DNA of 64,000 bases, from positions 3,936,813 to 4,000,812 of the forward strand of contig OW818666.1 in NCBI GenBank assembly GCA_942493035.1, written 5' to 3'. Positions 25,450 through 59,534 of this stretch are shown here, one piece after another (the stretch's first letter is position 1; the number at the start of each line of letters is the position of its first letter). Source of the stretch: an uncultured Spirochaetota bacterium (GTDB lineage Bacteria; Spirochaetota; UBA4802; UBA5550). The notes under the pieces are model-generated. The model did no database searches. It was not told the origin of the DNA and saw nothing but the letters and a program-made list of their open reading frames with translations. The translations under genes were made by a program, and so were the position numbers.

Positions 25450-25660
25450 CCCCGGCGGGCTTGGGAGAGCCGGCCGGGTTTCCCTTTTGGGAGAAAAATA
25501 GAGTTCTTTGAAAACGATATTATAGCGAGCATGAGGCCCCGCAGGGGCATAACGGAGGGGCGAAGTAAGGGCGAAAAATCTTTCGCCCTTACTTCGCCCA
25601 TACTTCTTCGCCAACACAACCCGCCCACAGGCGAGGCCGCATGGTCGCTGTAATGAAGGC
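25450..25660 (+). other. GC-rich structured intergenic element between the flaB genes, with a 19-bp perfect hairpin (25558-25599)
   Basis: GGGCGAAGTAAGGGCGAAA-AATC-TTTCGCCCTTACTTCGCCC plus smaller stems; GC content far above the local background. Confidence 0.4.
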
Positions 25661-51079: not shown

Positions 51080-51364
51080 CTAAAGCAGTGCATCGTATCT
51101 TTTTTTTATCGGATTAAGGAGATACTCAAGGCCATAAATTTTTATTTCATAGAGTGTAGATAAAAGCATTCCAAGTCTCCCTGAAGGGAAACCGTTTTCA
51201 TGATACCATACAACATAATGTTCAGGGAGATTGCACAACGTCACACCTTTGTATTTTCCGTATGGCATCTCTGTAGTTACCAGATCAAACAGTACAGTTG
51301 GATCCATCATCTCATTCATACTCTTTTCATTATTTTCCATCAGAGACAGCGCCTTTTGTTTCAT
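51080..51364 (-). CDS. DUF3820-like small protein
   Basis: Conserved MPYGKYKG...LP..Y..W core; start ambiguous (51364, 51340 or 51319) and overlaps the upstream tgt-fusion gene. Confidence 0.5.
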   Translation of the reverse strand: MKQKALSLMENNEKSMNEMMDPTVLFDLVTTEMPYGKYKGVTLCNLPEHYVVWYHENGFPSGRLGMLLSTLYEIKIYGLEYLLNPIKKRYDALL

Positions 51365-53381
51365 GAAACTGAGGGTGATTTAAAATGAGTTTTTCAATCC
51401 GATCCTGTTCATCTTTAGAGATGTATTCATCGAACTTTGCGCTGCTCCTTTTGAATCGTTCAAGCCACTCAGTTCCAAGGAGTTTTATGTCGGAGTTTTT
51501 AATTTCCAGTGATGTGAATGCAGCAGTGGTATCGTTTTTAGGACCTGTTCCCTTTCCTGATCCGGTATAAAAACCTGCAGCAAGAAGTGATCCTCTTACC
51601 ATGGTGGAGCTTGAATATGTAAAGAGTTTAGCAGGTCTGTTTATGCAGTGATTGTATATACGTTTAAATACAGAATAATTCCAGAGAGTTCCATTTGTAT
51701 TCAAAGAGAACGGATCGAAGAAAATGCAGTGCGGCTGATGAGATTTTTCAATATGATCAAGAAAATCCCCCTCAACAAGATTCCATTCAATATTAAACTT
51801 ATCAGATCTCCATGACCCTTTGTTAAGAATTGAAGCAGGAGCTGAGTGCCGCACATGATGAAAAAGTGACGGATTTTTTACTGTAAGGAGGAATGAGTCG
51901 AGATCATTTTCAAAGCTTACTATGCGCACCACTTTCTGAAAATTATTTTCAGAATATAGTTTTTCACATTCCAGTATTGCAGCCATTGCATTAGTCGCTG
52001 AACCCATCCCCACATCCCAGATAACAAGTTCGTCATCGGTAATTGAATTGAGCATCACTTCCAGCTCTGACTGGTCAACGTAAAGAGTTTTTGCTTCAGT
52101 TAAAGGTTCAATAACAGAATGCATTATCTCCCCCGATTTTATATGACGAATGCTGTGAAATCCCGCATCCTGTTTTACAATCTGGTAGTCTCCAAGTGCA
52201 GGTAGCTCTGACTTTTTTTTGCGAATAGGGTGAGTTACCGGATGTTCATCGTCATCCCGTACTAACAGTTCTTTCTGTTCGGAGTAGTAAGATGCAAAGG
52301 TTCCTTTTAGAATATGATTCCGCATTGAATTCATAAGATTGCGGTAAAAAGTGAGATTATGTATTCCAATGAGATTGCCGCCATAGTACTCCTGAGTCTT
52401 AGTCAGGTGATGGAGATAGGCGCGGCTGTATCTGCTGCATGCCGGGCAGGAACAGTTTTCGTCAAGGGGTCTGTCCTGGAATTTATAGATCCCTCTGCGC
52501 AGCTCCATTCTTCCATGGGATGTATATGCAACTCCCTGCTGTGCCATTGCAGTCGGGAGGATGCAGTCGAACATATCGACACCACGGTGAACTCCCTCTA
52601 AAAGGTCTATTGGAGTTCCCACACCCATGAGATATCTCGGATAGTCGCGCGGGAGGAGTGATGCGGTAAACTCAGTCATGTCCTTTCTTTCATCTTCAGA
52701 TTCACCAACTGCAAGCCCGCCGATTGCAAATCCGTCAAAGGGGAGGGATGTAATCTGTCCTGCGCTCATTTTCCGGAGTTCCGGGAAACATGCACCCTGT
52801 ACAATTCCGAAAATAGATTGAGCTGAATCTCCCCTTGCTGCTATACTTCTCTCTGCCCATCTTGCTGTAATATCGGCTGCCTCTCTGCAGAGAGACTCTT
52901 CTGATGTGGACGGAATACACTGATCCATTGCCATCATTATATCGCTGTTAATTAATTTCTGTGTTCCGATACTTGTTTCCGGACTTAAAAGAATTTTTCT
53001 GCCATCGTGATAACTTCTGAAGACGGCACCATCTTCAGTTACTTTAACATCTTTTGAAAGTGAAAATACCTGAAAGCCTCCTGAGTCAGTAAGTACAGAT
53101 CTCTTCCAGTTCATGAACTGATGTATCCCTCCGAACTTCCGGAAAACATCAGTCCCGGGGCGGAGCAGCAGATGATATGTATTTGCCAGTAGAACAGGAA
53201 ACCCCAAATCCTCAACGGCAGTAGTATCCTGTGAACGGAGTACAGCAAGGGTCGCTACGGGCATAAATACAGGTGTCTGTACGGTATTGTGCAGTGTAGT
53301 GAAAGTGGATGCACGTGCAGCTGAATTTTCCGCTTCAGCTTCAACGGTGAAACCAAGGCGATGTATATTTTTTAAGTTCAT
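51330..53381 (-). CDS. tgt: Queuine tRNA-ribosyltransferase (Tgt) fused to a C-terminal MnmC2-like (DUF752) methyltransferase-like domain
   Basis: 683 aa. Residues 1-370 match Tgt (LTDSGGFQVFSL, Zn site CSCPACSRYSRAYLHHL); residues 440-650 resemble the MnmC methyltransferase domain (VIWDVGMGSATN, FFDPFSLNTNGTLWN, FTYSSSTMVRGSLLAAGF). Confidence 0.8.
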   Translation of the reverse strand: MNLKNIHRLGFTVEAEAENSAARASTFTTLHNTVQTPVFMPVATLAVLRSQDTTAVEDLGFPVLLANTYHLLLRPGTDVFRKFGGIHQFMNWKRSVLTDSGGFQVFSLSKDVKVTEDGAVFRSYHDGRKILLSPETSIGTQKLINSDIMMAMDQCIPSTSEESLCREAADITARWAERSIAARGDSAQSIFGIVQGACFPELRKMSAGQITSLPFDGFAIGGLAVGESEDERKDMTEFTASLLPRDYPRYLMGVGTPIDLLEGVHRGVDMFDCILPTAMAQQGVAYTSHGRMELRRGIYKFQDRPLDENCSCPACSRYSRAYLHHLTKTQEYYGGNLIGIHNLTFYRNLMNSMRNHILKGTFASYYSEQKELLVRDDDEHPVTHPIRKKKSELPALGDYQIVKQDAGFHSIRHIKSGEIMHSVIEPLTEAKTLYVDQSELEVMLNSITDDELVIWDVGMGSATNAMAAILECEKLYSENNFQKVVRIVSFENDLDSFLLTVKNPSLFHHVRHSAPASILNKGSWRSDKFNIEWNLVEGDFLDHIEKSHQPHCIFFDPFSLNTNGTLWNYSVFKRIYNHCINRPAKLFTYSSSTMVRGSLLAAGFYTGSGKGTGPKNDTTAAFTSLEIKNSDIKLLGTEWLERFKRSSAKFDEYISKDEQDRIEKLILNHPQFHETKGAVSDGK

Positions 53382-53451: not shown

Positions 53452-53910
53452 ATGAGGGATTTTTTTATCGGGGAGAGGATATTATTAATTGAGCGAATGA
53501 TCCTTTCCGTTGGGGTGAATGATTATTCGCCCGTACGAGGTTGAGAGAAATTTTATAAAGGGGATATTTTTAGGAGTGGGATTTTTTTATCGGGGGAGAG
53601 GGGATTTTTAATTGAGCGAATGATCCTTTCCGTTGGGGCGAATGATTATTCGCCAGTACGAGGTTGAGAGAAATTTTATAAAGGGGATATTTTTAGGAGT
53701 GGGATTTTTTTATCGGGGAGAGGGGATTTTTTAATTGAGCGAATGATCCTATCCGTTGGGGCGAATGATTATTCGCCCGTACGAGGTTGAGAGAAATTTT
53801 ATAAAGGGGATATTTTTAGGAGTGGGATTTTTTTATTGGGGAGAGGATATTTTTAATTGAGCGAATGATCCTATCCGTTGGGGCGAATGATTATTCGCCC
53901 GTACGTGATT
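53452..53910 (+). repeat. Tandem array of four ~122-bp units, each with REP hairpin GGGCGAATGATTATTCGCCC
   Basis: Near-identical units beginning AGTGGGATTTTTTTATCGGGGAGAGG...; each holds GAGCGAATGATCC plus the palindromic GGGCGAAT-GATT-ATTCGCCC followed by GTACG. Confidence 0.85.
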
Positions 53911-54013
53911 GGGAGAATAATATTTATAAAATATTTTTTATTAAGGGAATTTTTTAAAAATTTCTCTGCTGCTATCGTATTCATATGTAAGAAATATTAT
54001 TAAGGAATTTAAA

Positions 54014-54565
54014 ATGTCATATAATCCGGTTTTTCATCATAGGCGATCTATTCGTTTAAAGAGATTTGATTATTCTTCTTCGGGTGCATATTTTGTTACT
54101 TTATGTGTAAAAAATAGAACAAAAATTTTTGGCTATATTGTCGGTGGTAAAATGATTTTAAATGCTGCCGGTATAGCAGCTCAGTTATGCTGGCAGGAGA
54201 TACCTTTACATTATCCCTTTGTTTCTCTGGATGTATTTGTTATTATGCCCGATCATATTCATGGGATAATTTTGATTAAGGAATCGGATTTGAGGTGGGG
54301 AAAGGATACTGATGTCGTGGAGAATGATTATTCGCCTGTACGTGAAAATGATAATTTGTTTCATAATAAGCGGCCGCGCGGTACTTCAAAAACAATCGGA
54401 TCGGTTGTTCGCGGATATAAGATAGGTGTAACAAAATGGTTCCGTAAGCATACACTTGTCGAGTCTGTCTGGCAGCGAGATTATTATGAGAATATTATAA
54501 GAAATTATGATGATTTAAATCGAATTCGTAGGTATATTATAAATAATCCGCAGAAGTGGAGATAG
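54014..54565 (+). CDS. REP-associated tyrosine transposase (RAYT; IS200/IS605-like HUH Y1 transposase)
   Basis: 183 aa; N-terminal GAYFVTLCVKNR, HUH motif PDHIHGII, C-terminal WQRDYYENIIR...YIINNPQKW, all resembling E. coli RayT/YafM; flanked on both sides by REP copies. Confidence 0.8.
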   Translation: MSYNPVFHHRRSIRLKRFDYSSSGAYFVTLCVKNRTKIFGYIVGGKMILNAAGIAAQLCWQEIPLHYPFVSLDVFVIMPDHIHGIILIKESDLRWGKDTDVVENDYSPVRENDNLFHNKRPRGTSKTIGSVVRGYKIGVTKWFRKHTLVESVWQRDYYENIIRNYDDLNRIRRYIINNPQKWR

Positions 54566-54595: not shown

Positions 54596-54675
54596 TCTTT
54601 TTTTTCGGGAGAATTATATCTTGATTTGAGAGAATGATATTATCTGTCGGGGCGAATGATTATTCGCCCGTACGG
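54596..54675 (+). repeat. REP unit downstream of the RAYT gene
   Basis: TTGATTTGAGAGAATGATATTATCTGTCGGGGCGAATGATTATTCGCCCGTACGG, same unit as the upstream array. Confidence 0.75.
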
Positions 54676-55085: not shown

Positions 55086-55106
55086 GGGGCGAATGATTCA
55101 TCGCCC
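55086..55106. repeat. REP variant hairpin, terminator-like between convergent genes
   Basis: GGGGCGAATGATTCATCGCCC. Confidence 0.6.
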
Positions 55107-58437: not shown

Positions 58438-59196
58438 TTATTGAGTCAGTTTTCTTATTATATCGTCGGCACACTTTTTTCCGGACAGAAGCATCCCTCC
58501 GAAGATGGGACCCATACGCGGTGAACCGAAGTATCCGCATGCAGCCATTCCTGTTACGTATAAGCCGGGATAAATTTCTCTGGTATTTTCTACAGTCATC
58601 AATTCACCCATATCTGAATTCATTGGAGCTTCACCTTTGGGCGGATCAATAATCCCGCGTTTTGCAAGCATTGAAACTATTGCAGAGGGGTGGCCCGTTG
58701 AATCTACAACAATATCCGATGAAATCATAAGCGGATCAACATGAAGACCCGTTGCTCTTACCGGTGACCAGTTTATAACAACTCCGCTCATTGCGCCATT
58801 TTTGACTGATACATCTTCCACTTCAACAGTATTAAAAATGGTCAGACCTGCATCGACAGCATGTGCAGTTAACTTTGCTGCCATTTCCACTGAATCGAGA
58901 GAATAATAATCGCCGGGATGTTCGGTAAGGTGCAGAGAGAATTCTCTTGCTATCGGTATACTCTCCTTCTGCAGTATAACCCTGTTCATCATCATACCGC
59001 CGCCCCATACTCCGCCACCTATAGAAAGCTTGCTTTCGAAGAGTGCAGTTTTAATACCGGCGTGTGAAAGGTAGTATCCAAGGACAACTCCCGACGGACC
59101 TCCTCCGACTATTACAACCTGATTTCTCAGGTGTGCCAACAGCTTTGCTGAAAATGTTTCGATTACCAGTTGAGAAATTATTGATTCATCAAGCAT
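58438..59196 (-). CDS. thi4: Thi4-family thiazole synthase
   Basis: 252 aa; VVIVGGGPSGVVLGYYL dinucleotide fold and SIGGGVWGGGMMMN; GGAGG SD; TPP riboswitch upstream. Confidence 0.85.
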   Translation of the reverse strand: MLDESIISQLVIETFSAKLLAHLRNQVVIVGGGPSGVVLGYYLSHAGIKTALFESKLSIGGGVWGGGMMMNRVILQKESIPIAREFSLHLTEHPGDYYSLDSVEMAAKLTAHAVDAGLTIFNTVEVEDVSVKNGAMSGVVINWSPVRATGLHVDPLMISSDIVVDSTGHPSAIVSMLAKRGIIDPPKGEAPMNSDMGELMTVENTREIYPGLYVTGMAACGYFGSPRMGPIFGGMLLSGKKCADDIIRKLTQ

Positions 59197-59224: not shown

Positions 59225-59362
59225 AAAAAAGCCGCGTACGGAGGAACGCGGCATATACATTGATAATCTATAGTTATTGTACTGCCGTTTCCCTCCGCCG
59301 GTATTAACCGGATCAGGTAAAAAGGGTATAATCTCAGCACGCATTTACTGCGGCACCCCTAA
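59225..59362 (-). promoter_or_regulatory. TPP (THI-box) riboswitch with terminator expression platform
   Basis: Minus strand reads UAGGGGUGCCGCAGUAAAUGCGUGCUGAGAUUAUACCCUUUUACCUGAUCCGGUUAAUACCGGCGGAGGGAAACGG, then hairpin GCCGCGUUCCUCCGUACGCGGC plus U-run, then GGAGGAA SD and the thi4 AUG. Confidence 0.9.
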
Positions 59363-59534
59363 CGGTAAAAATTTTATCAAAGAACTGATTTATTAAAAAA
59401 TCTACCGGGCATTGATGTCAATTAATTATTATATTTTTAATCTAATAAAAATATAATAATTTAAAGCGCTGTGAATTTCTATTATAAACAAGCCAGTGTC
59501 GAAAAACCATGATTCTAAAAACTAGCTGATATTA

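Follow-up and report, generated by a model that had tools for sequence, protein, structure and literature searches.

The stretch of DNA analysed here, called the window, comprises 64,000 nucleotides of contig OW818666.1 (assembly GCA_942493035.1, positions 3,936,813 to 4,000,812) from an uncultured Spirochaetota bacterium. At window positions 51330-53381, on the minus strand, it harbors a single ATG-started open reading frame (ORF) of 683 amino acids without an internal stop (stop codon at 51330-51332). The encoded protein contains, from the N-terminus and with all segments on the minus strand, a Tgt domain (aa 14-371; 52269-53342), an interdomain linker (aa 372-395; 52197-52268; LLVRDDDEHPVTHPIRKKKSELPA), and an MnmC2-fold methyltransferase domain dependent on S-adenosylmethionine (SAM) (aa 396-683; 51333-52196). 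PF01702 and PF05430 thus lie in one ORF with Tgt at the N-terminus, and the protein falls within the ~660-700 aa expected of this TGT+MnmC2 architecture. A first-pass annotation made from the sequence alone had proposed that Tgt and an MnmC2-like methyltransferase are united in one polypeptide. Evidence from hidden Markov models (HMMs), profile-profile alignment, and predicted fold supports that proposal, except that the C-terminal domain comprises ~288 residues rather than the ~250 suggested. The results are consistent with a protein that is probably a bifunctional tRNA wobble enzyme, with two domains acting independently of each other on position 34.

The N-terminal half is, as far as sequence can tell, a canonical bacterial tRNA-guanine(34) transglycosylase, predicted to exchange G34 for 7-aminomethyl-7-deazaguanine (preQ1) in GUN-anticodon tRNAs. 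PF01702 spans aa 21-368 (E 7.9e-135, 449.9 bits), and the protein scores 433 bits against the NCBIfam Tgt equivalog TIGR00430, which has a cutoff of 306.75. The N-terminal 370 residues align end to end with Tgt from Zymomonas mobilis (1ozm; E 3e-99). In Z. mobilis Tgt, D102 is the general acid/base and D280 the catalytic nucleophile. These residues align with Asp99 (53085-53087) and Asp272 (52566-52568), respectively, which agrees with the first-pass claim of an intact catalytic aspartate and zinc site. The zinc ligands are C310-x-C312-x2-C315 (52437-52454) and H341 (52359-52361), which together span 52359-52454 and correspond to Z. mobilis C318/C320/C323/H349. The substrate-pocket loop GGLAVGE (aa 221-227; 52701-52721) corresponds to the Z. 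mobilis G229-E235 loop, D153/C155 to D156/C158, and Q195 to Q203. In an alignment of 86 fusion homologs, D99, D153, C155, Q195, GGLAVGE, D272, and the four zinc ligands are all invariant. The bacterial-type pocket residues C155 and V225 (Z. mobilis Cys158 and Val233) are likewise present and invariant; Cys155 and Val225 are presumably the pair that marks a bacterial preQ1-type Tgt.

The C-terminal domain belongs, by profile and fold, to the MnmC2 family. The Pfam model PF05430 (Methyltransf_30), which represents this family, spans aa 512-622 with 52.9 bits, above the gathering score of 22. The NCBIfam model NF033855 (tRNA_MNMC2) spans aa 415-622, where the score of 66.6 bits is under the cutoff of 136. 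However, the validated MnmC2 of Aquifex (204-aa part) also fails to reach this cutoff, scoring 113 bits, whereas the E. coli protein scores 263. The cutoff is therefore conservative, and the failure is not evidence against MnmC2 function. An AlphaFold2 (AF2) model of the domain alone has a mean predicted local distance difference test score (pLDDT) of 92.3 and a predicted template modeling score (pTM) of 0.90. When compared to the PDB with Foldseek, its nine best matches are all MnmC2 or MnmC structures (E 8e-15 to 1e-10). The top match is Aquifex MnmC2 (3vyw; E 8e-15, template modeling score 0.66 over 281 columns), and the others include the N-domain of E. coli YfcK and MnmC from E. coli and Yersinia. 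The next family, the archaeal rRNA m4,2C synthase (E 2e-8), lies about six orders of magnitude behind MnmC2, and spermidine synthases come after it. Profile alignment with hhalign to residues 1-250 of E. coli MnmC gave a probability of 96.5%. The domain consists of an N-terminal beta-hairpin containing the LGxYE motif, a Rossmann core, and a C-terminal helical extension that ends in HxQF.

Residues with known roles in E. coli MnmC have counterparts in the C-terminal domain. In E. coli MnmC the loop Gly66-Gly70 binds SAM, Glu101 is critical for SAM binding and methyl transfer, 'DGFAP' is the Asp178-Pro182 motif, and Lys236, within the stretch 'GFGRKRE', is an RNA-binding residue (PMC3648344, including Table 2). 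The SAM-binding motif I, W455-D-V-G-M-G-S-A462 (51996-52019), aligns with the E. coli loop GFGTG. S489-F-E491 (51909-51917) places Glu491 at the Glu of E. coli 'ISFEKF', and this residue is at least 90% conserved in fused and stand-alone forms of the domain and is also present in Aquifex. Motif IV, D556-P-F-S559 (51705-51716), aligns with 'DGFA' of E. coli and 'DAFS' of Aquifex. The segment T588-Y-S-x-S-T-x-V-R596 ... A-G-F ... G-T-G-P-K615 (51537-51620) ends in Lys615, which aligns with the Lys of 'GFGRKRE'. E. coli Glu101, Asp178, Lys236, and the GxGxG loop are thus matched by conserved E491, D556, K615, and G458/G460; the first-pass annotation had suggested a check of the SAM-binding residues without naming them. 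From these alignments, the SAM-binding and catalytic positions of validated MnmC2 appear intact, and the C-terminal domain is a divergent MnmC2 subfamily for which methyltransferase activity is predicted.

It is highly improbable that the domain is catalytically dead and serves Tgt only as an additional tRNA-binding or oligomerisation module. The third Gly of the GxGxG loop is replaced by A462, and beyond this substitution no positive evidence for loss of activity was found. Hundreds of diverged sequences show no or almost no variation in motif I, in the acidic residue that follows strand 2, in the Asp of motif IV, and in the basic Lys, and 38 conserved positions are common to the stand-alone proteins described below. 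This pattern is expected of an enzyme under purifying selection.

The two domains are connected by a basic, Lys-rich linker (…IRKKKSELPA…), and the basic patch is also found in the family consensus. The AF2 model of the full-length protein combines a mean pLDDT of 90.2 with a whole-chain pTM of only 0.61, and pLDDT drops below 50 at residues 387-391 of the linker. In this model, the low pTM and the partly low-confidence linker are consistent with two well-folded domains without a fixed relative placement.

The fusion is a minority architecture, but it is not rare and is widespread in uncultured bacteria. The 120 best full-length homologs, which are 54-100% identical, all have the same length, and 118 of them contain both Pfam domains. 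When one genome per GTDB species was scanned by pattern, at least 565 C-domain matches were confirmed, the best of which is only 67-68% identical. Among the best 79 of these, 78 loci have both domains in one stop-free frame. Record titles of the survey matches name Leptospirales, Spirochaetia, Brevinematales, Chitinispirillaceae, Acidobacteriota, Riflebacteria, and Thermodesulfobacteriota, together with many Opitutae/Verrucomicrobiota, Oligoflexia/Bdellovibrionota/Bacteriovoracaceae, and Binatia. The nearest labelled relatives are Leptospirales, Spirochaetota, SAR324, and 'Deltaproteobacteria TL4'.

The conservation of length and frame leaves a negligible chance that the ORF is an artefact in which two adjacent genes were merged by a sequencing or assembly error. 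Apparently split pairs of tgt and C-domain genes do exist, at two loci (L091 and L092). However, these pairs are themselves fused genes broken by indels: one frame runs through the Tgt C-terminus and the linker into 'LGNYEIH' before the frame jumps. The stop-free frame at 78 of the 79 best loci, the uniform length of the 120 best homologs, and the conserved linker consensus speak against an artefact, and frameshift or misassembly was rejected as an explanation. The first-pass annotation had named a frameshift joining two genes as a possible refutation of the fusion, and none was found.

Three loci contain seemingly separate tgt and methyltransferase genes that are frameshifted fused genes (L091:5760-7840, L092:5860-7783, and L063:4785-6876). 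The frameshifts are probably due to indel error in long reads, although some of these genes are possibly pseudogenes. Two contigs (L027 and L035) of the Candidatus Udaeobacter metagenome-assembled genome (MAG) SMAG_U10962 carry one fused copy each. This double copy could be a real duplication, strain heterogeneity, or contamination of the bin.

The C-terminal domain also occurs without Tgt. An exhaustive phmmer search with aa 396-683 returned 1345 representatives at E <=1e-3, of which 170 were at <=1e-30; the top hits are mostly proteins of 250-340 aa. Many of the short hits are fusions cut at contig ends and called from an internal methionine, Met350 or Met420. Others are genuine proteins of 277-304 aa encoded on long contigs without tgt nearby, such as P0285 (L006), P0302 (L007), P0329 (L009), and P0135 (L093). 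These contain the entire domain, from the N-terminal LGxYE through the terminal HxQF. Because the genuine stand-alone proteins lie far from any tgt, the C-terminal domain does not appear to depend on Tgt.

A comparison of 131 fused and 88 strict stand-alone domains identified 38 positions that are at least 90% conserved with the same residue in both sets, most of which are also found in Aquifex MnmC2. No position is conserved differently between the two sets. Five positions are conserved in the fused set only; for three of these, the residue typical of fusions is retained at some positions in the closest stand-alone clades. Residues specific to the fusion that would hint at a new function were sought in the same 131 fused and 88 stand-alone domains, and none were found. 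In a neighbor-joining tree of the C-terminal domains, fused and stand-alone forms are intermingled, with stand-alone proteins on the deepest branches; the internal branches are very short, and the tree is used for this qualitative point only.

Both forms can occur in a single genome. A Bdellovibrionota MAG (GCA_040384145.1) encodes a fusion of 673 aa (L007:987-3008) and, 5 kb away, a stand-alone protein of 278 aa (L007:8001-8837) that is found again in L054. The fused and stand-alone copies are 56% identical to each other, and all key residues are kept in both. No named Bdellovibrio isolate is among the best 120 homology hits, which provides no link to the MnmC2 encoded adjacent to ytqA in Bdellovibrio; the protein P0155 is encoded on a contig of 1 kb. 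The label 'queuine tRNA-ribosyltransferase' has been given to proteins of ~300 aa that contain only PF05430 (P0135, P0456, and many JGI entries), apparently carried over from the annotation of fusions.

The fusion itself is already catalogued and is not new. A 2023 preprint on the synthesis of 5-methylaminomethyl-2-thiouridine (mnm5s2U) lists "TGT+MnmC2" fusions (bioRxiv 10.1101/2023.12.21.572861). According to its Data S3, three Verrucomicrobia (Opitutae) genomes that also encode MnmA, MnmG, and MnmE have TGT+MnmC2 proteins of 680-696 aa, such that the fusion co-occurs with MnmE/MnmG in all three. In each of these genomes the fusion is the only COG4121 member and the sole MnmC homolog. For one of them, HZ-65, the YtqA/MnmL columns are also zero in that source, in keeping with the 'MnmC2 without MnmC1' route of Aquifex type that the same preprint describes. 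The preprint contains no functional test of the fusion, and none was found in other literature. The first-pass annotation regarded the fusion as unusual and as possibly implying a new activity. Its frequency in several phyla and its listing as 'TGT+MnmC2' in 10.1101/2023.12.21.572861 do not bear this out.

The fusion genes do not share a conserved neighbourhood. All-against-all clustering of 793 ORFs from ~83 loci revealed that neighbour families recur in at most 7 loci, and none of these fusions is set in a queA-tgt-yajC-secDF arrangement. A conserved operon context, with queA, yajC/secDF, mnmE/G, or mnmL as candidate partners, was rejected, as each neighbour family is limited to a maximum of 7 loci and the individual contexts are unrelated.

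The combined evidence is best accommodated by two ordinary activities on one chain, which is the likely function of the protein. The Tgt domain would catalyze the conversion of G34 to preQ1 in the GUN-anticodon tRNAs for Asn, Asp, His, and Tyr, the first step of queuosine synthesis at the tRNA level. The C-terminal domain would use SAM to convert 5-aminomethyl-(2-thio)uridine-34, nm5(s2)U34, to 5-methylaminomethyl-(2-thio)uridine-34, mnm5(s2)U34, in tRNAs with U34, including those for Lys, Glu, and Gln, among others. As the protein lacks an attached MnmC1 oxidase, the nm5U would probably be supplied by MnmE/MnmG via the ammonium route known from Aquifex. A plausible rationale for the fusion involves the split NAN codon boxes. 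Transfer RNAs with queuosine at position 34 (Q34) read NAY codons (His, Asn, Asp, Tyr), and those with xm5s2U34 read NAR codons (Gln, Lys, Glu). The fusion may thereby ensure 1:1 co-expression of the enzymes for both modifications. An ordinary MnmC2 role is favoured because the fusion is frequent, the stand-alone proteins have the same conserved residues, the linker is modelled partly with low confidence, and the fusion is the sole MnmC homolog in the three Opitutae genomes of the preprint.

Several observations weigh against this function. The identity to Aquifex MnmC2 is ~26% over aligned columns, members of the subfamily score 59-97 bits against NF033855 with its cutoff of 136, and phmmer comparison to E. 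coli-type MnmC gave only E 0.3. In E. coli MnmC, Pro182 is a SAM-binding residue that is >98% conserved in bifunctional MnmC (PMC3648344); the equivalent position here is Leu560, and it is variable across the family. No biochemical test of any member of the subfamily was found in the literature. The apparently intact fused and stand-alone copies in one Bdellovibrionota genome would represent a redundancy that is unexplained if both do the same job. Finally, the persistence of the fusion across many phyla suggests some gain from physical linkage, which independent activities would not obviously need.

The distance of the subfamily from validated MnmC2 and the variable Pro182 position would also suit an active MnmC2-fold methyltransferase with a different target, for example another amine in tRNA or rRNA. 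Fusion to Tgt would then provide tRNA delivery or be a convenience of co-expression. The rRNA m4,2C synthase and spermidine synthases that follow as structural neighbours indicate that the fold allows other amine reactions, and the neighbourhoods give no link to mnmE/G, mnmL, or mnmA. Nonetheless, a different target is unlikely. By E-value, MnmC2 structures outrank the next family by about six orders of magnitude, and they match nearly the full length, including N- and C-terminal extensions common to Aquifex; most of the family-conserved residues are also present in Aquifex MnmC2. The gene content of the Opitutae genomes listed in the preprint is complementary as well.

The partnership with Tgt raises the question of whether the C-terminal domain functions in the queuosine pathway, by N-methylating preQ1 on its 7-aminomethyl group, either within the tRNA at position 34 or as free preQ1, or by catalyzing another SAM-using step. 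The chemistry is compatible, as nm5U and preQ1 both bear a -CH2-NH2 group on the wobble base and methylation of such an amine by MnmC2 is established. N-methyl-preQ1 occurs naturally in phage DNA (PMC10516641). The conservation of the fusion across phyla, the divergence of the subfamily from validated MnmC2, the fused and stand-alone paralogs in one genome, and the absence of the classical queA-tgt operon around the fusions could be read in the same way. However, stand-alone proteins have the same conserved residues with no tgt nearby, there are no fusion-specific substitutions, and the linker is partly of low confidence with a pTM of 0.61. The fusion is also the sole MnmC homolog in the Opitutae genomes with MnmA/G/E listed in the preprint. 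Furthermore, N-methylation of preQ1 is known from DpdM, a metal protein of the DUF3109 family without relation to MnmC2, and N-methyl-preQ1 in tRNA was not found in the literature searched. Methylation of the amine that QueA modifies would, by the reasoning followed here, hinder the completion of queuosine. A role in preQ1 methylation is therefore quite improbable. If it were true, the tRNA of lineages with the fusion would contain an undescribed 7-(methylaminomethyl)-7-deazaguanosine, the RNA counterpart of phage mdPreQ1, and the stand-alone proteins would either be true MnmC2 enzymes or catalyze the same reaction in trans.

If the protein does combine Tgt with an nm5(s2)U34 methyltransferase, it represents an ordinary housekeeping pair of tRNA-modification enzymes on one chain, and its value lies mainly in annotation. 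Fusions named only 'Tgt' probably hide an MnmC2 activity in lineages that seem to lack MnmC, and stand-alone proteins are often mislabelled as queuine tRNA-ribosyltransferase despite containing only the methyltransferase domain. The sequences define a large MnmC2 subfamily, mostly from uncultured Spirochaetota, Verrucomicrobiota, Bdellovibrionota, and Binatia. Coverage of the split codon boxes is a testable rationale for the repeated retention of the fusion.

In the window, neighbouring genes of the fusion encode a LuxR-type response regulator, a PAS histidine kinase, a small QSregVF_b protein, a DUF1304 protein, an HD-domain response regulator, a B12 radical-SAM protein, and Thi4. The QSregVF_b ORF (94 aa; PF12843, E 1e-28; 51080-51364, minus strand) shares 35 nt with the 3' end of the fusion gene, which is encoded on the same strand, and a later internal Met may be its true start. 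This neighbour does not recur at the other fusion loci. At one such locus (L001:9358-10017; GCA_942491575.1), a ThiF-family gene of 219 aa (PF00899) lies directly upstream of the fusion gene and overlaps its start. The product might modify tRNA in the manner of TcdA; other loci do not conserve this arrangement.

Directly upstream of the fusion gene is a tandem repeat with a 123-bp unit (53456-53917; 3.8 copies, 95% matches), which occupies the likely promoter region of the gene. The array is responsible for the strong regional GC skew. Each unit contains the palindrome GGGCGAATGATTATTCGCCC, single copies of which lie at about 54650-54669, 55087-55106, and 25569-25588. A scan allowing <=3 mismatches gave 13 strand-specific matches at ~8 distinct sites, compared to 0.01 expected by chance. 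Next to the array, an ORF of 183 aa (54014-54565, plus strand) matches NF047646, the REP-associated tyrosine transposase (RAYT) family, with E 1.8e-14 and 53.8 bits, short of the cutoff of 80; no Pfam family matches it at 1e-3. In combination with the palindromes on its flanks, this ORF looks like a system of repetitive extragenic palindromes (REP) and RAYT. A riboswitch upstream of the fusion gene was considered and rejected, as the upstream region is the REP-like tandem array and the sole hit when the window was searched with Rfam at gathering thresholds is a thiamine pyrophosphate (TPP) riboswitch elsewhere. The TPP riboswitch (RF00059, 73 bits; 59273-59370, minus strand) is upstream of the Thi4-family gene (58438-59196, minus strand), an ordinary arrangement.

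The first-pass annotation also judged the fusion gene to be more GC-rich than its surroundings. A mild excess is present, as the gene has a GC content of 0.431 compared to 0.383 ± 0.040 for 43 ORFs of the window (about +1.2 standard deviations). However, six other ORFs are as high or higher, and the excess is confined to the Tgt half (0.461, with 0.53, 0.44, and 0.42 at codon positions 1, 2, and 3, respectively), whereas the C-terminal half has 0.391. A foreign origin of the gene was rejected, given the small deviation and its location in the Tgt half, mainly at codon positions 1 and 2. Such a distribution is in line with the amino-acid composition of an enzyme under high conservation and is not a pointer to horizontal transfer.

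Phage DpdM (DUF3109) N-methylates dPreQ1 in DNA to form mdPreQ1 (PMC10516641). Like the reaction considered above for the C-terminal domain, DpdM N-methylates the aminomethyl group of preQ1 and functions downstream of a Tgt-family transglycosylase, DpdA. Unlike the window domain, DpdM has an unrelated metal-binding fold and acts on DNA, and the two have no relationship in sequence or fold. The Z. mobilis and E. coli-type Tgt enzymes (1OZM, 1ENU) have catalytic, substrate-pocket, and zinc residues in common with the window Tgt half. Canonical Tgt ends at ~375-386 aa and is often encoded in a queA-tgt-yajC-secDF operon, whereas the window fusion has a 310-aa extension and no conserved neighbours.

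MnmC of E. coli and Yersinia pestis (MnmC2-MnmC1; 3PS9, 3AWI, 3SGL, 2QY6) is also a two-domain protein, and its N-terminal MnmC2 domain has the same fold as the window C-domain. The partner in these proteins is an FAD oxidase of the same pathway, whereas the partner in the window protein is Tgt, from another pathway. The domain order is reversed as well, with the methyltransferase at the N-terminus in MnmC and at the C-terminus in the window fusion. Stand-alone MnmC2 from Aquifex aeolicus (DUF752; 3VYW), an nm5s2U34 methyltransferase, is the best structural match, including the N- and C-terminal elaborations. Both domains contain motif I, S-F-E, D-x-F-S, W, Y-S-x-S-x-x-V-R, A-G-F, and K, and neither Aquifex MnmC2 nor the window fusion has an MnmC1 partner domain. 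Aquifex MnmC2 differs by its low identity to the window domain (~26%), by keeping the Pro after D-A-F-S that is variable in the window family, and by not being fused to Tgt. The TGT+MnmC2 fusions of Opitutae/Verrucomicrobiota have the same two-domain architecture and length as the window protein and are 44-50% identical to its C-domain; the listed Opitutae proteins come from a different lineage.

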